Assembly: GCA_965223845.1 (NCBI GenBank) | Contig: CBDCXR010000004.1 | Span: 1,952,001 to 2,016,000, forward strand | From: Planctomycetota bacterium | GTDB lineage: Bacteria; Planctomycetota; UBA8108; SXIK01 | DNA: 64,000 nucleotides | Direction: 5' to 3' | In this document: piece after piece, positions 6,399-64,000 of the stretch | Position numbering within the stretch: the stretch's first letter is position 1 | Layout of the letters: each line of letters starts with the position of its first letter | Notes under the pieces: generated by a model | What the model was told of the DNA's origin: nothing | Databases searched by the model: none | What the model saw: the letters and a program-made list of their open reading frames with translations, nothing else | Translations under genes and position numbers: made by a program

Positions 6399-7286
6399 GT
6401 GATGAATCGAACGCTTCTCGGCGCTCTTCTAGGAGCCGTTCTCGTCGCTGCGCTGGGTTTGCTCGCGGTCGCGGGGGCGTCGCTCTCGTCGACCGAGCGT
6501 GACGCGGCTTCGGAAAACGCGGCCTACGAAATCTCCCAGCTCCGGGAAGAGGTCGACGCGCTTCGCGGCGCCATCGACGAACTGGCAGAAGTCGCCCGCG
6601 AATCTCAGACGTCGCAGCAGAATCTCCTCGATCGCCTCACGCCCGTCTCGACAGTCTCGGCGGCTACCGGCGCGACTCCGACGAGCTCGACCGCCATGAG
6701 CAAAGCCGACCTAAAGGAGTTTGTCGCGGTCATTCTCGACCAGCAACGCGAGCTGCGCGACGAAGCAAGGGAGGAGCAGCGCGACGAGTTTCGCCGCCGC
6801 ATCGAAGAACGTCAGCAAGAACTCGAGGCGATGAAAGAGGGTCCGTACGACCGCTTCAACCTCAAGGTCAACTCTCTCGGAAAAGTTCTCGGACTCGAGG
6901 AGAGTCAGAAGTCGGCATACTACGAACTCGCGCTCGCTTACAACGCCAAGCTCAAGGACAAAACGTCGGAAGTCTCCGCCGCGAATGAAGCGAGCGAGAC
7001 CGACTCCGATCGTTCCGGCGACGAGTCGCGCCGGGACCGCCGTCGCGGTCGTGACTCGTACCGCCGAGCGTCCGCGGAACTCCAAGAAGAGTTCGCCGCG
7101 GAAGTCGCCGAGATCCTCACCGAGGACCAACGCGCGTCGTTCGACGAGCTCTCTCGCGACGCACGCAGTTTCGCCAGCCGCGAGGCGGTCAGTTCCTCGA
7201 GCGGACGGCGTCGCAGTTTCGGTTTCAGTGGCCGCTCGTCTCGCGGCGGACCGGGTGGAGGACGCGGAGGCGGACGTCGGCGCTAG
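6399..7286 (+). CDS. Hypothetical membrane-anchored/exported coiled-coil protein
   Basis: N-terminal hydrophobic helix, coiled coils, ILTEDQ (LTxxQ-like) and an RG-rich tail. Host-like codon usage. Confidence 0.75.
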   Translation: MMNRTLLGALLGAVLVAALGLLAVAGASLSSTERDAASENAAYEISQLREEVDALRGAIDELAEVARESQTSQQNLLDRLTPVSTVSAATGATPTSSTAMSKADLKEFVAVILDQQRELRDEAREEQRDEFRRRIEERQQELEAMKEGPYDRFNLKVNSLGKVLGLEESQKSAYYELALAYNAKLKDKTSEVSAANEASETDSDRSGDESRRDRRRGRDSYRRASAELQEEFAAEVAEILTEDQRASFDELSRDARSFASREAVSSSSGRRRSFGFSGRSSRGGPGGGRGGGRRR

Positions 7287-7503
7287 CCCAGAGCGAATCC
7301 GTCGGCGGGCGCATTCGCCGGCCATTCGCGGCGACCCTCGGGAGCGCCGCCAGCGTCACGACCGACTCGCTCGTCGGGCTCGCCGGGCATCTCCGATCAC
7401 CGACTAAGGATCGTAGTCTTACAATCCGCGAGCGCGGTTCCGACCCCAGCCGGGGAACGAAACGGAGACGCTCTTCCGTCGACGATCGAGAGTGGCTCGA
7501 CGG

Positions 7504-8712
7504 TCAGTCCGCCGTCTCCACTCCGCGCGACTGCGCGAGTCCCGCCGCGAATTGCAGCAGATCGCTCTGCTCCCGCGACACCTCGAGGAGAGGCGCGAAA
7601 TCCCCCTTTGCCGAACACAGATCGCTCAACGACGGCGCGATCGTCGTCTGCGGACCGGTCCCAGAGAGGTACTTTCGGTACGCAGCGATCGCCTTCTCGT
7701 ACTGCCCGGTTCGGTATAGCAGGTAGACGAGAACCTCGCCGGGGAAGTGGCGCCCCTCTTCGTCGACGTCGTGGCGATCGGCGGCCTGAGTGAAGTAGCG
7801 AACGGCGCCGTCGACTCCTTCACCCGCGAGCGCGCGTAAGTAGATGCGGTAGTCGTTGTAGAAATCCTCGAACGGCGGCTGATCCGGATGCTGAAAGTCT
7901 CGACCGAGCCGTCGCCCATACTCCGTGAGCTGGATTCCCTTCTCGACGAGAGCGCGATCCTTCATCGTCGCCGCGACGCGAACGACGGCCATCAAGTGGC
8001 TGACGTCGACGTGGTAGCCCATCCCCTCGAAGAGCCACGAGTTCTGTTCGACCAACGTACGCAGATCCGCGTCCTCCGGCGGCGCGTCGACTTCGTCGTT
8101 CGCCTCGCTCGTCGCGAGCACGTCCGAGCGCACGTTCTCGCTGAGGTCAGCGTACAGTCGCTCGATGAGAAGACGACCACACGCTTCACGCACCTCACCC
8201 TGGTAGGGGAACTGGTGCTCGAACACGGTGATCGCCCTGCACACGCCGTACTCCGAGAGGACGAGCTCGTACCCCCGCGCCGGCGCGGCACCTTCTGTGA
8301 GCGCGATCCCGACGATCTCGTCGAGCTTCGTGAGCGCGTCCTCATCCTCGGTGTCTCCGGGCGGGGCCCAATCGGCGATCGCGTCCGCAATCGGCCGCTT
8401 CTCGTCGATCGCCCGGTAGTACGGCCACGCGCCCGCGATATCGCCGTCGGCGAGGAAAAGCGCGCCCACCTCTCGGCACACCTCGACGTAGTACTTCTCG
8501 ACCTCGTCCTGGAGCTCCTCCGGGAGATCGTTGATCGAGTCCGTGCCCTGGAGAGGAAGTCCGAGTTCGTGCCGCTTCTTCATCAGTCGCGCCTCGAAGA
8601 GCTGCGGATACTTCTTCTCTTCGCGCAGGAGCTCGACAAGCCGATCGAATGCCGCCGGCATACCCTCGGCTTGAGCGCAGGTTTCGAGAATCTGGAACGG
8701 ATCGTTGGTCAT
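7504..8712 (-). CDS. Hypothetical alpha-helical (TPR-like) protein
   Basis: Protein-like from MTNDPFQILE (ATG 8712). The longer ORF extension overlaps tctA out of frame. Confidence 0.75.
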   Translation of the reverse strand: MTNDPFQILETCAQAEGMPAAFDRLVELLREEKKYPQLFEARLMKKRHELGLPLQGTDSINDLPEELQDEVEKYYVEVCREVGALFLADGDIAGAWPYYRAIDEKRPIADAIADWAPPGDTEDEDALTKLDEIVGIALTEGAAPARGYELVLSEYGVCRAITVFEHQFPYQGEVREACGRLLIERLYADLSENVRSDVLATSEANDEVDAPPEDADLRTLVEQNSWLFEGMGYHVDVSHLMAVVRVAATMKDRALVEKGIQLTEYGRRLGRDFQHPDQPPFEDFYNDYRIYLRALAGEGVDGAVRYFTQAADRHDVDEEGRHFPGEVLVYLLYRTGQYEKAIAAYRKYLSGTGPQTTIAPSLSDLCSAKGDFAPLLEVSREQSDLLQFAAGLAQSRGVETAD

Positions 8713-8729
8713 GGGAAACACGCCATTCG

Positions 8730-10304
8730 TTAACGAGAACCTCGCGAGCGCCAGCGCGCGACGAGCGGCGGGAGCACCCAAATCAGAATACAGCTGACGC
8801 CGAGGACAAGCGCGATGGGGCGTTCCGGACTGAGTAGCGACAGCACGGAGCCCTGATTCTTGATCACGCTGCGAATGAAATACTCTTCCAGCTTCGCGCC
8901 GAGAATCAAGCCCAGAACGACGGGACCGAGCGGCACGCGGAACGCTTCGAGCGCGAACCCGAGCACCCCCATCGCGAGCATGATCCAAACGTCGAGAAGG
9001 TCGCTGTAGAGCGCGTACGCGCCGACCGTACAGAAAAGAAGAATCGCGGGAAGAAGGACTCGCCGCGGGATTCGGACGAGATGGCTCGCACCGCGAATCG
9101 CGAGGTAGCCGAGCGGCAGCAAAAGCAGATTCGCCGCGATGAACGTGAAGAAGACACTGTAGACGAGCTCGGGCTGGTCTTCGAAGATCTTCGGCCCCGG
9201 CTTGACGTTCTGCATGAGGAGGACACCGATCGCGATCGCCGTGACCGAATCCCCCGGGATCCCGAAGATGAGCGATGGCACCCAAGCGCCTCCGAGCGCC
9301 GCGTTGTTCGCCGCGCTCGCGTCGCTCAGCCCCTCGATCGACCCCTTCCCGTAGTCACCGGGATGACGAGACGTCTTCTTCGAGGCTGCCATCGACACCC
9401 ACGCGCCGATGTCGGCACCAGCTCCCGGAAGAACTCCGACGCCCGTCCCGATCACCATCGAACGGAGCGCGTGCCACTTCCGTCGAACGAAGAGAAGTGC
9501 GGCCGGAACGAGCATTCCGCGCCCCGCAGATTCGCGCAGAATCCGTTCGCCGCTCGACACGTCATCGGGATTCGAGTTCTCGTCGTCTTGGACGTCGGCT
9601 CGTTCACTTCCCGTCGCCACAACGTCGAAACCGCGAAGGAGATTCCGCAGCACTTCCGAAAGACCAAAGAGGCCGATCATCGCCGGAATGAAATGGACCC
9701 CGACGATGAGCGCGTCCGTCCCGAAGACGAAGCGCGGCGTTCCGTGCACGGGGCTCAGCCCGACGGTCGAGAGAAGCAGGCCGACGAGAAGCGCCAGCGC
9801 TCCCTTGAGGCGTGAACCCGACGCAACGATCCCCGCGCAACTGAGTCCGAGCGCGGCGAGCCAAAAGTACTCGACGCTCGTGAAGAAGAGCGCGAAGCGG
9901 GCGACGGCCGGTGCTGCGGCCATGAGGACGATCGCCCCGAAGATCCCTCCGACGACCGAAAAGAGGAGACTGACGCCGAGCGCCTGCCGCGGGTAACCGC
10001 GCCGAGTGAGCGCGTAGGCGTCCTCCGTGTAGGCCGAAGACGCCGGTGTTCCGGGGATGCGGAGGAGCGCGTTCGGGAGGTCACCCGCAAAGATCGCGCA
10101 GGCCTCGAGCGCGACGATCGCCGCGAGCGCAGAAACGGGATCGAGGTGATAGGTGATCGGGACGAGCAGCGCGACCGCCATGGTCGCGGTGAGCCCGGGA
10201 ATCGCCCCGATGACGACGCCGTACGTCGCCGCAAATAGGATCGCAAGGAGTGTCGCGGGGCTCGCGAAGACCGCGTAGAAGCTTCGTTCGAGGACCTCTA
10301 ACAT
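8730..10304 (-). CDS. tctA: Tripartite tricarboxylate transporter permease TctA
   Basis: GAIPGLTATMAVALL, LLRIPGTPAS, GVLPGAGA, FGIPGDSVTA and many TM helices. Confidence 0.95.
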   Translation of the reverse strand: MLEVLERSFYAVFASPATLLAILFAATYGVVIGAIPGLTATMAVALLVPITYHLDPVSALAAIVALEACAIFAGDLPNALLRIPGTPASSAYTEDAYALTRRGYPRQALGVSLLFSVVGGIFGAIVLMAAAPAVARFALFFTSVEYFWLAALGLSCAGIVASGSRLKGALALLVGLLLSTVGLSPVHGTPRFVFGTDALIVGVHFIPAMIGLFGLSEVLRNLLRGFDVVATGSERADVQDDENSNPDDVSSGERILRESAGRGMLVPAALLFVRRKWHALRSMVIGTGVGVLPGAGADIGAWVSMAASKKTSRHPGDYGKGSIEGLSDASAANNAALGGAWVPSLIFGIPGDSVTAIAIGVLLMQNVKPGPKIFEDQPELVYSVFFTFIAANLLLLPLGYLAIRGASHLVRIPRRVLLPAILLFCTVGAYALYSDLLDVWIMLAMGVLGFALEAFRVPLGPVVLGLILGAKLEEYFIRSVIKNQGSVLSLLSPERPIALVLGVSCILIWVLPPLVARWRSRGSR

Positions 10305-58969: not shown

Positions 58970-61900
58970 TCAGCCCCCCTTCCCAGAGTCGAGCTCCGGA
59001 TCCCAGAAGAGGGGCAAATATCGGTAATAGACCTCGAGACTGAGGATCGCAAAGCACGTCGAGAGGAGCCGCCCTCCTCCCTCGGTCCACGAGTCGGTCG
59101 GGTCCCAGCTTCCCGCTTTCGGGCCTTCGCTGTGCTGCGTGCGTACGAGGTACTCCCTCGCTTGCTCGTTCCACCGCTCCCAGATCCACCCCTGGTACTG
59201 GTAGAGCCCGAGCGTCGAGTAGTAGACGAAGTAGAGATTGTTGAGCTGAGGATTGCGCGTGTTCTCGCTGTGGATGTACCGCGCCGCCTCCTCGATGTTT
59301 CGGTCCGTGCGGCTCGACCCGAGGAGCTGGCGAACGAACATTCCCTCCGCCACCATGGCGATGCGAGGCTCCTCGGGGTTCGAGTATCCGTAGATTCCCT
59401 GGTGCGTTCCGCCGGCGACCTCGACGTCGAGCCAATGACGCGCGCGCTCGAAGCTCGCCTCGGGGACGCGGTAGCCCGCGTTCTTGAGACTCGTAAGCGC
59501 CATCACTTGCCAGCCCGTAACCGACGTATCACCCCGAACCGGAGGTTGGGGGAGGTAACGCCACCCGCCGGTGGTGCGATTCTGCGCGCGGACGATGATC
59601 GTGCCGGCGTTTCGGAGTGGAACGCGCAGACGCTTATCGCGCGTGAGGATATAAGCCTCGCTGAGTGCGAGCGTCGCGATCCCGTGGTTGTAGAGGACGT
59701 ACTTCTGGTCGCGACCGGCGATGAGCCCGTCTTTCGTCTGCATGTCGAGCAGCCAGTCGATCGCGCGTTTGACGTGGTAGCGGTAGGGGCTCGACGTGTT
59801 GGCGTGCGTGTGGTTTTGCCCGAGAAAACAAAGGAGAGCGAGTCCCGTGATCGCGACATCGCAGCGCGTGTGGAATCCCGGGCTTCCGCAATCGGGGCAA
59901 GTCGCGAGGAACCCGTCGACATCCCAGCGGCCGTCGGGCGACTGGTTGCGCGCGAGCCACTCGAGACCGAGTCGGACCGCATTCTCCGATTCCGGTGTTC
60001 CGCCCATCGATCGGACGAGCTTCTTTCGACTCGGCTCGGACCGAACGCTGCGCAAGTCCGTTTTCTCGTTGGGATCGGACTCCGGCAGAACGACCGCGAC
60101 CGAGGGGGAGCTCGTCTTCGGGAGATCGACGCGCGCGACCTCGGTGGCGGCCGGTGGCGCCGGGCGAACGACGGCCTCCGCGACGAGCGACGAAGGCGCG
60201 CTCGACGAGCCGGCGGGCTCGCTGCCTTGCGCGGGAGACGCGGCGACGTGCGGCGTCGGCGATCGGTGCGACGACTGTGCGAGGCGCGCACGCGGGACCT
60301 CGAGCCCGAGGACGTCTCCGACCTCCGGCGCGCCCGCCGCGACGCGTCGCCCGGCTTCGCCGTCGGGGAGCCGCACGTCGGTCTCAAAGGGCGCGGGCGT
60401 AGGGCTCGCGTCGACCGTGGTGAGACTGCCCGGAGTCGGCGCCGACGCGAGTGGCGCCGGTGAGGCAGCGGTCACCGCGTTGAGCGCGTTCGCCGGCGCG
60501 ACCTCGGGAGCGGACGCTGGCGCCGGTGTCGACGCCGGTGACCCGCTGGCTCGCGAGCTCGTACTCGGGGACGAGTCGAGTCGCCTCTCCGCGCGCGTCG
60601 GCCGCGGGACGATCTCGCTCCTCGCCGCGCTCGCACGCGCAAGCTCGACCGGACTCGGCTCCGGAAGTCGGTCCGGGTCTGCCTTTGCCGTCGGCAGTCG
60701 GGACGCGACGTCGAGGGACGACTCGCGCAGCTCCGCGGCCGCGTCGGGCACGTCGGTCGGCGCCACTCCCGTCGGTGCTCTCACCCATTCGGACCGAACG
60801 GCCAGCGTCGCCGCGCTCGGCGGCGGCGGAGCGGGCGCCGGCGCGGGGAGCGGGCGAGCGATGGCTCGCGCCTCGACACGACGACTCGGCGCGGAGGGTT
60901 CGACGGACAGCTCGGGCTCCGGCTCGGTGACTCGCGCCGGAAGCGGCAGCTCGTCCCGGAAGAGAGGCTGCGCGGGAGCGACCCGCGCGAGCGGGGGGAG
61001 CGTCTCGGGCGGTTCGGGCACCTCCGCGCGGACTTGCGTGCGCGCCGCCCGTGTGACCGTCCGGGCGTGAACGATGGCCTGAGATGACTCGTGCGCGACG
61101 ACCGCGCCGACCGCGCCGGGTCGAGGCGTTTCCGACTCTACCTGAAGGCTCTTTGCGACGCCGGCCGGCGCGAGCTGCGGCTCGCTCGCCGGCTCGACCG
61201 GAACGGGACTCGGGAGCGACTCGACCGCGACCCGCTCGTGGCGCGCTAAGTCCTCGACGAGCTCCGTACGCGGCGCACTCACCGTCACCTCCGGGAGATT
61301 CGGCAGCGCGGCCGCCGTTGCTGCGACCGTGGCGACGCGCTCGAGCGCCGGAGTTTCGACGACGTGCGCGTCGACGGACGAGACGAGCGGCGTGGTCGGC
61401 AGCACGCGCTGAGTCGACGTCGGAGTCGAGAGCTCGGGCGCCGCGGACGGGTCGAGCTCTTCGGGGAGATCGAGATCGAAGCGCTGCGTCGCGAGCGTGA
61501 GCCGCGCCTGGAGGGTCTTCTCGATCGTGACCTCCGCGAGCGCGGCCTTCGGAGCAAGGGGCTCGAACTCGGTGCTGATTCGCCAGAAGTAGAACCCGTA
61601 GAGCATACCGACATGAAGAAAGACGGCGGCGAGCGCGCAGCGGAGAGAGAGACTGAGCGCCCAAAAGTGACGGTAGCGAAGAACCGCCCAAACCGCCCCG
61701 AGGAGAGCGACTCCTCCGATGACGAATCCGCCGATCCAGACCGCGTACTCCGTCGCGACCTCAAGTGGAACCGCATTCAGCGAAAGCTCCGGCGCGACCT
61801 CGTGCGAGCGACTCTCGAAGTAAGCCGACGCGCCCGTGTCCACGTTCGTCACGCGGTACGCGAGCGCAAAGCCCTCGAGGAATAGAACGGGATGGCTGTC

Positions 61901-62902
61901 GTCGAGCGAGGAGTTCACCGTCGGGCCGATACTCTCCGGTTCCCCGCATCGGATCCGCGTCGCCGAGCGTTCGTCGCCGCCGCTCACGCGGCTGCGACTG
62001 CGGTAGATGTCGAGTCCGCCCTTACCACCGGCGCGATTCGATGCGAAGTAGAGAAACGTTCCGCTCGGCGAGAACGAGGGAGTCGTTTCGTCGCTCTCCC
62101 GCGCGCTCGCGGAAATCGGCTCCGGATCGGACCACCCGCCGCGGAGTCGCCCCCCCGCGGGAGCGTAGACGACCGCGAGATTGTCGTCCGCGGCCGTCCA
62201 GTTCGCGATCGGAACGTCGTCCCACTCCTCGGGCGGCGAGAGGATGAAGGTCTCGGGACGGTTCGTCGCGAAGACGAGGAGCCGTCCGTTCGGGTGCGGC
62301 GCGGGGCCGTAGTCGTCGAAGGGCGAGTTGACGCGCGAGCCGAGATGGATCGGCTCCGACCACCCCGTCTCCGCACGGCGACTCGCGTAGAGATCGAAAC
62401 CTCCGAGCCCGCGCGGACGATCGCTCGCGAAGAAGAGGACGCTCCCGTCGCGAGTGAGAACGGGAGTCACCTCATCGTGCTCCGTGTGGATCGGTGCCGA
62501 GTCTCCTCCGAGAAGAGCGGGCTCGGTCCAGCCGTCGCGCGTGAGTGTCCGCTCGAAGAGATCGTAGTCACCGGCGTCGCTTCGGAGCGAAACGACGACC
62601 GACGTCTCGGACGTCGCGCCACCCGTTTCGTCGCCGGCGGTGATCTCGATCGCGGGCGGGATCTCACGCGGCGACGACCAGAGGACGCTTCGAATGTTCA
62701 GGCGATCCTTCGAGTCCCAGATCACGTCGCCGTCGCGGTAGATCCAGCGCACGAGGCCGGTGCGAAACCCGGCCCAGACCGCGACGAGTATCGTCGTCGC
62801 GACGACGGCCGCGATCCAGCCGCCGGCCGTCCACCACGATCGTGGCGAGGGGGGCGGCGATCCCGTAGACGCTCGCGACTCTCCTTGGATCTCGCGTCTC
62901 AT
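58970..62902 (-). CDS. Multidomain membrane protein: PD40/TolB-like propeller, TM hairpin with TonB-type His, Pro/Ala-rich linker, prenyltransferase-like (alpha/alpha)6 barrel
   Basis: LFFASDRPRGLGGFDLY and LYFASNRAGGKGGLDIY (PD40), AVFLHVG TM, ~500-aa P/A/S linker, WLARNQSPDGRW, AQNRTTGGWRY, KAGSW. Confidence 0.87.
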   Translation of the reverse strand: MRREIQGESRASTGSPPPSPRSWWTAGGWIAAVVATTILVAVWAGFRTGLVRWIYRDGDVIWDSKDRLNIRSVLWSSPREIPPAIEITAGDETGGATSETSVVVSLRSDAGDYDLFERTLTRDGWTEPALLGGDSAPIHTEHDEVTPVLTRDGSVLFFASDRPRGLGGFDLYASRRAETGWSEPIHLGSRVNSPFDDYGPAPHPNGRLLVFATNRPETFILSPPEEWDDVPIANWTAADDNLAVVYAPAGGRLRGGWSDPEPISASARESDETTPSFSPSGTFLYFASNRAGGKGGLDIYRSRSRVSGGDERSATRIRCGEPESIGPTVNSSLDDSHPVLFLEGFALAYRVTNVDTGASAYFESRSHEVAPELSLNAVPLEVATEYAVWIGGFVIGGVALLGAVWAVLRYRHFWALSLSLRCALAAVFLHVGMLYGFYFWRISTEFEPLAPKAALAEVTIEKTLQARLTLATQRFDLDLPEELDPSAAPELSTPTSTQRVLPTTPLVSSVDAHVVETPALERVATVAATAAALPNLPEVTVSAPRTELVEDLARHERVAVESLPSPVPVEPASEPQLAPAGVAKSLQVESETPRPGAVGAVVAHESSQAIVHARTVTRAARTQVRAEVPEPPETLPPLARVAPAQPLFRDELPLPARVTEPEPELSVEPSAPSRRVEARAIARPLPAPAPAPPPPSAATLAVRSEWVRAPTGVAPTDVPDAAAELRESSLDVASRLPTAKADPDRLPEPSPVELARASAARSEIVPRPTRAERRLDSSPSTSSRASGSPASTPAPASAPEVAPANALNAVTAASPAPLASAPTPGSLTTVDASPTPAPFETDVRLPDGEAGRRVAAGAPEVGDVLGLEVPRARLAQSSHRSPTPHVAASPAQGSEPAGSSSAPSSLVAEAVVRPAPPAATEVARVDLPKTSSPSVAVVLPESDPNEKTDLRSVRSEPSRKKLVRSMGGTPESENAVRLGLEWLARNQSPDGRWDVDGFLATCPDCGSPGFHTRCDVAITGLALLCFLGQNHTHANTSSPYRYHVKRAIDWLLDMQTKDGLIAGRDQKYVLYNHGIATLALSEAYILTRDKRLRVPLRNAGTIIVRAQNRTTGGWRYLPQPPVRGDTSVTGWQVMALTSLKNAGYRVPEASFERARHWLDVEVAGGTHQGIYGYSNPEEPRIAMVAEGMFVRQLLGSSRTDRNIEEAARYIHSENTRNPQLNNLYFVYYSTLGLYQYQGWIWERWNEQAREYLVRTQHSEGPKAGSWDPTDSWTEGGGRLLSTCFAILSLEVYYRYLPLFWDPELDSGKGG

Positions 62903-63312
62903 TCTTCTTGCGTGAACGCGAAGTTGGGCGTCTTGAACCCGATGCGCGTGCAGATCTCGAGCGTCTCGGCCATCGCGGTGACGCGGCCGCGCGTGTCCGT
63001 GCGGATGACGACCTCGCCGTCCGGCTTTTCCTCGTGGCGTGCTCGGACGATGCGCTCGAGCTCCGCGAGATCACGAACGCGACCGTCGACGATCTTCTGA
63101 CCATCGGCGTCGATGTTGATGACGAGGACGTCGTTCACGGTGCTGATCGGCATCGTTGAGCGCGTCTTCGCGAGTCGAATGCTCTCGTCGCGCTCTGCCT
63201 CGTGAAACCGGCTCGTCGCGATGAAGAAGACGACGAGGATGAACATCATGTCGATGAACGTCGTCAGGTTCGGCGCGCTATCGCCGCTCGCATCGGGGCG
63301 TCGGATTCTCAT
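62899..63312 (-). CDS. exbD: ExbD/TolR biopolymer transport protein
   Basis: PNLTTFIDMMFILVVFF with conserved TM Asp, and VVIRTD. Confidence 0.93.
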   Translation of the reverse strand: MRIRRPDASGDSAPNLTTFIDMMFILVVFFIATSRFHEAERDESIRLAKTRSTMPISTVNDVLVINIDADGQKIVDGRVRDLAELERIVRARHEEKPDGEVVIRTDTRGRVTAMAETLEICTRIGFKTPNFAFTQEE

Positions 63313-63350
63313 TGGCGTGTGCTCTCCACGCGTTTTCGATCAGCCGCTGG

Positions 63351-64000
63351 TCAAGAGTTCGCACCGGCGGCGAGATCGGTCCGACCGATTCTCTCCGTGT
63401 CGTCGTCGTCGGGAACGTCCTCGACACCGAGCGGCGCGCGAGGGGCCGTTACGGCGGAATCGTCGTCGAAGCAGCGGTCGAGGAAATGCGACGCCGCGGC
63501 GTCGAGCTCGTCCATCACGCGGTCGACTCGCCCCTGGAAAACGTGGTGGAGAAGCATGGAGGGAATCGCGACGGTGAGGCCAGCGGCGGTCGTTACGAGC
63601 GCGTGGTAGATTCCGTCCGCGAGCCGCTGTGCGCGCTCCGCCGTGCCCGCCTCACTCGCCTCGCCAAAACAGATGATGAGACCGAAGACGGTTCCGAGCA
63701 GTCCCAACAGCGGAGCGAGCGTCGCGACGACGGAAAACGCGCGCAGCCGTCGTTTGAGGAGGTCGAGCTCTCTCGCGCCGAACTCTTCGAGCGTCGTTTC
63801 GACCTCAGCCTCCCCGCGGCGGAGTCGCCGGAGGCCCTGGCGGAGCATCCGACCCACCGTGGTGTTCGACTCGCGACAAACTTCTTGCGCCGCGGTCGTA
63901 TCGGTCGCGAAACCGTCGTCGAAGCCGAGTTCGTCGACGACTCGGTCGACGAGCTCGATCCCGCCGATACGCGAGCGCCGGAGACTGATCCAGCGCTCGA
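63351..64000 (-). CDS. exbB: MotA/TolQ/ExbB proton channel (5' end outside window)
   Basis: APLLGLLGTVFG and GIYHALVTTAAGLTVAIP. The frame stays open to the window edge (ERWISLRRSR). Confidence 0.93.
   Translation of the reverse strand, partial: ERWISLRRSRIGGIELVDRVVDELGFDDGFATDTTAAQEVCRESNTTVGRMLRQGLRRLRRGEAEVETTLEEFGARELDLLKRRLRAFSVVATLAPLLGLLGTVFGLIICFGEASEAGTAERAQRLADGIYHALVTTAAGLTVAIPSMLLHHVFQGRVDRVMDELDAAASHFLDRCFDDDSAVTAPRAPLGVEDVPDDDDTERIGRTDLAAGANS

Follow-up and report, generated by a model that had tools for sequence, protein, structure and literature searches.

A putative TonB/TolA-type force transducer with a toroid head and a TolB-like propeller, encoded beside its own ExbBD motor genes in a planctomycete

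We describe a gene cluster at the end of a 64,000-nucleotide stretch of a Planctomycetota bacterium genome (genome G000, G000:C4:1952001-2016000; the whole stretch is called the window below), in which exbB and exbD are followed by a gene encoding a protein of 1310 amino acids. This protein is probably a force transducer of the TonB/TolA type served by its own ExbBD motor, in which a toroid forms the head and the docking helix is preceded by a fused TolB-like propeller. That the protein docks on the motor and transmits force is suggested by the helix motif, the predicted topology and the synteny. In the proposed mechanism, the three window genes, together with a 1169-amino-acid exported TPR protein encoded just beyond the window, would form a conserved four-gene envelope machine. 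ExbB and ExbD would build a proton-driven TonB/Tol-type motor in the cytoplasmic membrane, and the (S/A)-x3-H signature in the third transmembrane segment (TM3) of the transducer would dock on this motor, as in TonB and TolA. The motor action would then be passed on through an Ala/Pro-rich linker of about 500 residues to the C-terminal toroid head, which may bind an envelope component, and the propeller would stay in the periplasm near the membrane, between TM1 and TM2. Such an architecture is apparently undescribed among envelope force-transducing machines.

Gene layout and domain architecture

All three genes lie on the minus strand (Table 1), and exbB runs past the window end (63351..>64000). 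The stop codon of exbD and the ATG of the putative transducer gene overlap as ATGA (...GAAGAATGAGACGC...), and homologues reaching E = 0 show that the 1310-amino-acid gene is real. topA is located downstream of it. In the 18 kb scanned beyond the window, the gene of the 1169-amino-acid TPR protein, which is rich in TPR_6 and TPR_16 repeats, lies directly upstream of exbB, and its end overlaps exbB by 4 nucleotides. No TonB or TolA domain was detected with Pfam among the open reading frames (ORFs) of the operon or of these 18 kb. An earlier note on this DNA, made from the letters alone, had proposed the ATGA coupling and the domain order TM1, PD40 propeller, TM hairpin, linker and barrel, and for both of these the ORFs, Pfam, hydropathy and the structure models agree.

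Table 1 Features of the putative transducer locus and of two further motor loci of the same genome (window positions unless a locus is named)
Feature	Position	Strand	Evidence or annotation
exbB, 3' part in window; longest ORF 335 amino acids, L002:351-1358	63351..64000	-	Pfam MotA_ExbB (PF01618)
exbD, 137 amino acids, transmembrane Asp21, one TM segment 12-37	62899..63312	-	Pfam ExbD (PF02472)
Putative transducer gene, 1310 amino acids (P0001)	58970..62902	-	ORF; homologues to E = 0
TM1, about residues 27-47, predicted N-in	62762..62824	-	hydropathy 24-51; model helix 20-47; N-terminal charge
Predicted periplasmic PD40 beta-propeller region, about residues 51-375	61778..62752	-	Pfam PD40; all-beta model; Foldseek TolB
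TM2, about residues 380-409, predicted outside to inside	61676..61765	-	hydropathy 386-410; model helix 380-409; positive loop after it
TM3, about residues 413-441, TonB/TolA-like, A426-x3-H430	61580..61666	-	hydropathy 413-440; model helix 418-445
Ala/Pro/Ser/Glu-rich linker, about residues 445-949	60056..61570	-	505 amino acids of low-complexity composition
C-terminal QW-repeat (alpha/alpha)6 toroid, about residues 950-1305, CPDC...C insert near start	58988..60055	-	model, VIA, Foldseek, QW alignments
Paralogous module, TPR giant, 1180 amino acids	L006 2148-5690	+	
Paralogous module, exbB	L006 5687-6523	+	
Paralogous module, exbD	L006 6520-6942	+	
Paralogous module, 1301-amino-acid protein	L006 6982-10887	+	
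1003-amino-acid protein	L007 8492-11503	-	no Pfam hit
TPR protein	L007 7440-8495	-	TPR
exbB	L007 6609-7415	-	
exbD, first of two different genes	L007 6059-6574	-	
exbD, second of two different genes	L007 5380-5976	-	
906-amino-acid protein	L007 2525-5245	-	TPR/STN/Secretin

The motor genes were recognized clearly. ExbB scored 100.7 bits against MotA_ExbB for the part in the window and 98.9 bits for the full 335-amino-acid ORF (cut-off 22.9), and its hydrophobic segments are at residues 53-74 (signal-like), 97-126 and 206-235. ExbD scored 65.3 bits against a cut-off of 25.4, and its Asp21 is invariant in the 36 ExbDs of such modules (36/36).

Hydropathy of the 1310-amino-acid protein gives three TM segments, at residues 24-51, 386-410 and 413-440, and the AlphaFold model of residues 1-470 (29 sequences; predicted local distance difference test score, pLDDT, 77.9) has helices at 20-47, 380-409 and 418-445 and an all-beta region at 51-375. 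In these 29 sequences, the 20 residues before TM1 hold on average 3.2 Lys+Arg versus 0.8 Asp+Glu, the TM2-TM3 loop 4.3 versus 0.6, and the 20 residues after TM3 1.9 versus 2.1. Read by the positive-inside rule, this charge distribution puts the N-terminus and the hairpin loop in the cytoplasm, and the propeller, the linker and the toroid are predicted to be periplasmic. The propeller region matched Pfam PD40 in three stretches (63.9 bits, cut-off 20.9), and solved TolB structures top its Foldseek matches among those listed (best E 7.9e-11), with TM-scores of only 0.34-0.43. No TolB N-terminal domain (PF04052) was found by Pfam in the 1310-amino-acid protein, and its propeller is held between two TM helices, unlike the free periplasmic TolB.

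The linker, for which the earlier note had given about 500 residues of Pro, Ala and Ser, measures 505 residues and is composed of 18.3 % Ala, 15.7 % Pro, 10.3 % Val, 10.1 % Ser and 8.9 % Glu. The GC content over the linker-coding stretch (window 60000-61500) is 0.73-0.76, versus about 0.64-0.67 around it, which agrees with the Ala/Pro-rich composition. In the family, the linker has a median length of 491 amino acids and ranges from 148 to 1203 (n = 185).

For the head, the model of residues 935-1310 (37 sequences) is an (alpha/alpha)6 toroid with a pLDDT of 90.2 and a predicted template modelling score of 0.92. In VIA comparisons the model comes closest to squalene-hopene cyclase 1gsz (Z 27.0, root-mean-square deviation 2.9 over 286 residues), followed by the single-barrel cyclase 8paj (26.3), drimenyl diphosphate synthase (25.2), oxidosqualene cyclase (24.5), and epimerases and GH76 enzymes with Z of 22-24. 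The QW-repeat (alpha/alpha)6 barrel that had been read from the letters is thus borne out, and its CPDC...C insert is also present; the insert region is modelled less well (pLDDT about 68-70), and a CxxC within the first 100 residues occurs in only 109 of 226 related barrel domains. No vWA domain was hit in the 1310-amino-acid protein with Pfam, and neither TonB_C (PF03544 / PF13103) at E <= 0.1 nor TolA domain III (PF06519) was found in it.

The same note had called the barrel enzyme-like, which is doubtful. DxDD is the catalytic motif of class II terpene cyclases; no D.DD is present in residues 935-1310, and only 21 of 236 related barrels have one. Both Pfam cyclase families stayed below their cut-offs (SQHop_cyclase_C 22.3 vs 26.1 bits, SQHop_cyclase_N 15.2 vs 26.2), and alignments with squalene-hopene cyclase among PDB sequences are confined to the QW-type stretches (E 6.7e-5). 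With Foldseek, the matches of the toroid were a mixture of AprG, GH76, small cyclases and epimerases, with a best E of 3.3e-6 and TM-scores of just 0.54-0.62. Because of the missing DxDD, the similarity in QW stretches only and the mixed Foldseek matches, no specific activity can be assigned, and we abandoned the interpretation of the toroid as an enzyme. Binding, not cyclization, is the probable task of the head. A different motif, [GNS]D[TM]S, occurs in 195 of the 236 related barrels (GDTS at residue 1124 here), and the conserved acidic and aromatic residues of the toroid include E1082, D1125 and W1131. Existing annotation of the relatives gives only hypothetical or 'prenyltransferase/squalene oxidase repeat' proteins, and a protein atlas only generic 'squalene cyclase / prenyltransferase repeat' clusters.

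Conservation of the histidine helix and its linkage to exbD

TM3 contains the sequence AAVFLH, which ends at His430; counted from the start at 62902, the codon of this His occupies 61613..61615, where the earlier note had placed it. A hairpin profile iterated over 258 relatives matched 204 proteins and gave 205 aligned rows, in which the His430 column holds His in 201 rows, a gap in 3 and Asn in 1. In an independent alignment, His430 is invariant in all 29 N-terminal regions translated from separate loci (29/29). Four positions before the His, Ser is found in 172 rows and Ala in 30; the predicted docking helix has the form A-x3-H here and S-x3-H in 172/205 relatives. According to the text of a recent survey (Williams-Jones et al. 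2025, Mol Biol Evol, PMC12204202), S-x3-H marks the helices with which TonB and TolA bind their motors. Two of the three canonical TonB_C proteins of G000 carry such a helix as well (SIAAH and STVFH). Around His430 in 201 relatives, Phe or Leu is conserved at +7 (162/201) and Trp at +10 (146/201).

Toroids usually carry such an anchor. Among the 74 toroid ORFs of the 79 loci that do not run into a contig end, 61 have [SA]x3H in a predicted TM segment before the barrel. When the residues within the TM segments were shuffled, this number fell to 15 on average and never exceeded 23. Of the 13 ORFs without such a helix before the barrel, 7 encode double-barrel proteins in which the His helix has a later position.

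Two other features of this region were observed. Cys422 (61637-61639), 8 residues before His430, is Cys in 172/201 relatives, and we know of no counterpart of it in the TonB/TolA motif. About 20-25 residues after the docking helix, a strand-like motif, EVTIEK, is found at residues of about 455-462 (window about 61517-61540), with xIQVAL or TRVAL in relatives, and VVTVRL and LAVRVVV stand at a similar distance from the helix in TonBs of G000; it resembles the TonB/TolA 'motor box' as described in the text of PMC12204202. A complex prediction of two copies of ExbD residues 38-137 with transducer residues 436-500, which hold this candidate box, scored 0.01 vs a mark of 0.32 and counts neither way.

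The genomic linkage was surveyed in 79 loci, with one genome per species, by searching six-frame ORFs with profiles of the hairpin, the toroid, ExbB, ExbD and the TPR giant. The hairpin is carried by 36 toroid ORFs, and a same-strand exbD lies upstream of 32 of them; in 31 of these 32 it is directly upstream, with a gap of -220 to +152 nucleotides, and in L040 an intervening toroid ORF separates them. The genes at the exbD-transducer junction often overlap or are spaced by 4 nucleotides. exbB is found in 30 of the 32 loci and the TPR giant in 28, and the rest run out of DNA. Since three of the four loci without exbD have less than 400 nucleotides of DNA upstream, 32 of 33 informative loci are linked. 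By their record titles, the loci belong to Phycisphaerae, Planctomycetia, Verrucomicrobia, Victivallales and Sumerlaeia, and a few otherwise-labelled bins may be mis-binned. Of 48 toroid ORFs without a hairpin-profile match, 11 have exbD upstream, at a distance of 4 to 1855 nucleotides.

G000 itself holds a second complete module (L006, G000:C4:1458001-1474000) with the order TPR giant, exbB, exbD and PD40/hairpin/toroid protein (Table 1). The propeller regions of the two modules are 33 % identical, and the flanks of the paralogous module, bipA and an M61 peptidase gene, indicate that the conserved unit consists of the four genes. Upstream of the TPR giant at the window locus, further ORFs of 706, 491 and 304 amino acids show little or no Pfam signal (minus strand; L002 4998-7118, no Pfam hit; 6913-8388, weak Laminin_G_3; 8619-9533, YfiO-like TPR), and these three are absent from the paralogous module. 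Both TPR giants (L002 1355-4864 and L006 2148-5690) have signal-like hydrophobic N-termini; that of the paralogue contains a lipobox-like LVAGC, and the window copy has no Cys there.

The toroid alone matched 13,213 representative clusters at E <= 0.001. Of 101 Planctomycetota genomes sampled, 87 contain it (E <= 1e-30), and several copies per genome are common. Among the best 150 toroid representatives, 107 have the propeller and the His helix, 16 the His helix alone and 27 neither, several of the 27 being short. At least five toroid matches lie in G000, and just two belong to motor modules; for example, a 612-amino-acid open frame with a toroid match (G000:C4:1087731-1088792, minus strand) is far from all six exbD sites. 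Some relatives of 1500-1950 amino acids are double modules with propeller, toroid, second propeller, His hairpin, linker and second toroid (P0016 and P0019; loci L024, L025, L026, L038, L055 and L058). In others (P0083, P0085, P0090 and P0064), the propeller, His hairpin and linker are kept with another head, composed of a CarboxypepD_reg-type domain (Pfam, in P0083 and P0064) and an unassigned domain in which HHLGND...DDFEFVN is conserved, and P0064 has both a toroid and the CarboxypepD_reg-type tail. The heads on propeller/His-hairpin proteins thus appear swappable.

With respect to other Ton and Tol components, G000 encodes three TonB_C genes, six ExbD matches and five TonB-dependent receptors, with all TonB_C genes away from the module. 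Two of the three TonB_C genes adjoin a TonB-dependent receptor gene, the third is separated from one by about 6 kb that include an exbBD pair, and two of the three have exbD within about 1 kb. These canonical genes at other sites make the toroid modules extra to the ordinary Ton systems. Neither TolB_N nor TolA_C was found in G000, which is 91.7 % complete, and TonB_2 gave no match above cut-off there. Another motor cluster, L007 (G000:C4:2738001-2750000), has all its genes on the minus strand (Table 1), and its ExbBD motor beside a secretin gene is unusual.

Taken together, these results bear on the proposal in the earlier note that the protein transduces the proton motive force, with TonB_C replaced by the barrel and a TolB-like propeller in cis. 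The nearly invariant His, the linker and barrel predicted outside the cytoplasm by hydropathy, model and charges, the linkage to exbBD, and the lack of a TonB_C, TonB_2 or TolA domain in or near the operon all agree with it, and none of the refuting conditions named in that note was found; coupling to the motor is the part that we infer from comparison. The roles suggested there, in lipid or envelope remodelling or in the uptake of macromolecules, are speculative.

Counterarguments and rival explanations

Several points weigh against the force-transducer interpretation. First, the helix deviates in part from the known signature, as the window protein and its closer relatives have Ala instead of the Ser of S-x3-H (30/205 rows), and position +11, the last of the S-H-L-S motif, is not conserved. 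The support for binding of the helix to ExbB is all comparative. Second, the linkage is not complete. L065 has a hairpin and a toroid with no exbD in the 8 kb upstream, and 37 of the 48 toroid ORFs lacking the hairpin match have no exbD in the DNA examined (9 of the 37 are cut by a contig end), which means that most toroid proteins own no motor. Third, the propeller form is patchy: of 301 genomes sampled from the phylum, about 30 have it (23 near full-length and 7 split matches), a count that is a lower bound as only five candidates were scored per genome. Fourth, the kind of motor is not told by the scores: NCBIfam cannot tell a Tol-like from an Exb-like motor because every ExbB of G000 scores higher with TolQ than with ExbB, and the Ton-linked ExbB and ExbD likewise score higher with TolQ and TolR, so that this assignment was dropped. 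Finally, the tree of ExbB was built quickly, its search being unfinished, and the branches of the genome's own Ton ExbBs in it are very long (3.4 and 4.3 changes per site); no inference on origins is drawn from it. In that tree, 30 module ExbBs group together with those of L036, L057 and L062, separate from the exbB-exbD-exbD(-exbD) type. The paralogous ExbB is not sister to the window ExbB there.

A more specific form of the force-transducer interpretation takes the four genes as a planctomycete counterpart of Tol-Pal, which would use the proton motive force to stabilize or remodel the outer membrane and wall in growth or budding. We regard this as possible but rather unlikely. Here ExbB would stand for TolQ, ExbD for TolR, the fused helix/linker and propeller for TolA and TolB, the TPR giant for CpoB, and the toroid for TolA domain III or the contact with Pal, so that the parts match 5/6 Tol-Pal components. 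The TolB structures at the top of the propeller matches listed, the lack of TolB_N and TolA_C matches in G000, and the signal-like N-termini of both TPR giants, with the lipobox-like sequence in the paralogue, speak in the same direction. The TPR giant is also dominated by TPR_6 and TPR_16, the Pfam families that were used to detect CpoB according to the text of PMC12204202. However, the module has no Pal/OmpA-like gene, the N-terminal domain of TolB is missing from the putative transducer, PD40 and TPR are widespread as periplasmic modules, and the NCBIfam scores for TolQ and TolR do not discriminate. Moreover, with about 30/301 genomes, the propeller form cannot be the general division or envelope system of the phylum.

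A broader proposal goes further and makes S-x3-H-anchored toroid proteins the main periplasmic force-transducer family of Planctomycetota, with the propeller form, ExbBD and the TPR giant as a self-contained replacement of Tol-Pal, in which the proton motive force would pull on the outer membrane or deliver cargo to it over a planctomycete periplasm of unusual width. This is speculative and, in our opinion, has only a small chance of being right as a whole. If it is true, planctomycete envelope dynamics or macromolecule uptake that are so far unexplained would become directly testable.

It is still less probable that the module is an uptake or surface-fibre machine, in which the motor and the long linker energize the transport of macromolecules or lipids over a wide periplasm and the toroid is a cargo- or gate-binding head, for example in polysaccharide uptake tied to pili and crateriform structures or in isoprenoid-lipid traffic. 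The median linker of 491 amino acids is much longer than the linkers of the own TonBs, whose whole open frames have 302-463 amino acids, which fits a wide periplasm, and the solved (alpha/alpha)6 toroids among the structural matches listed bind glycans or isoprenoids. In addition, passages of PMC12673574 call the mechanism of macromolecule uptake in planctomycetes unknown. On the other hand, the genes conserved in the module include no outer-membrane gate, pilus gene or transporter, and the cyclase catalytic motif is absent.

We give an equally low probability to the explanation that the protein is not a transducer but a membrane-anchored periplasmic enzyme or receptor, whose His helix serves oligomerization or signalling and whose linkage to exbBD reflects co-regulation only. 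This explanation can draw on the 37/48 non-hairpin toroid ORFs, and hence most toroid proteins, that have no adjacent motor, on a fold family rich in enzymes, and on E1082, D1125, W1131 and other residues which, judged from sequence conservation, could form an active site. It is opposed by the helix motif, which is the specific and nearly invariant S-x3-H of TonB and TolA, and by the exbD-transducer order kept in 32/33 informative loci of several phyla. Orphan TonB paralogues that share one motor are normal in canonical Ton systems.

Comparison with known envelope systems

Like TonB, the force transducer proposed here is linked to exbBD and would work with an ExbB/ExbD motor whose ExbD helix carries the Asp; its S-x3-H helix is predicted to point from the inside to the outside and is followed by a Pro-rich periplasmic spacer. 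Unlike TonB, it has no TonB_C, three TM segments instead of one and an added propeller, and the module has no TonB-dependent receptor. For Tol-Pal, the module has counterparts of TolQ, of TolR, of the helix and spacer of TolA and of a CpoB-type TPR protein, and its propeller is a putative counterpart of that of TolB. In contrast to Tol-Pal, the TolA-like and TolB-like parts are in one chain, TolA domain III, the TolB N-terminal domain and Pal are missing, and the toroid head has no counterpart. Compared with class II terpene cyclases and the beta subunits of prenyltransferases, the (alpha/alpha)6 toroid with QW repeats is the same; compared with class II terpene cyclases, the head is a tethered single periplasmic barrel by prediction, has no DxDD and scores below the Pfam cut-off.

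In our full-text literature search, in which the supplements of PMC12204202 were not covered, no description of a PD40 or toroid transducer was found. PD40, squalene and prenyltransferase have 0 occurrences in the text of PMC12204202, whose supplements lay outside the search and might list such loci, and TonB, Tol-Pal, TolQ and ExbB have 0 occurrences in a 2025 review of the phylum. Excerpts of the hopanoid-transport preprint PMC12324291 contain nothing bearing on the toroid-transducer family.

The closest known systems are the vWA-headed transducers of the Planctomycetes-Verrucomicrobia-Chlamydiae (PVC) group and other bacteria, which, as the text of PMC12204202 describes them, combine an S-H-L-S helix with a vWA head through a linker of about 100 residues, and are encoded behind TPR-tolQ-tolR. 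Going by that text, these and the toroid module share an S-H-L-S-type His helix, a Pro-rich disordered linker, a head other than TonB_C and a position downstream of TPR and tolQ/tolR-like genes in PVC bacteria. The earlier note had proposed a fourth kind of Exb/Tol-type machine, which is overstated, since these published transducers make the toroid module a variant of their kind. The differences are that the head is a toroid here instead of vWA, that there is one exbD here and two different tolR-like genes there, that the linker has about 500 amino acids here and about 100 there, and that the docking helix is here the third of three TM segments, behind a predicted periplasmic PD40 propeller (vWA data from the text of PMC12204202).

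If coupling to the motor is confirmed, the four genes can be a concrete and mutable machine for studies of envelope maintenance or uptake in planctomycetes, and many 'squalene cyclase-like' annotations in PVC bacteria would turn into non-enzymatic heads of force transducers. After vWA in the 2025 survey, the toroid would be a second and much larger family of non-TonB heads on the same docking helix, and a docking helix placed as the third TM segment behind a TolB-like propeller would be a new architecture among such transducers.

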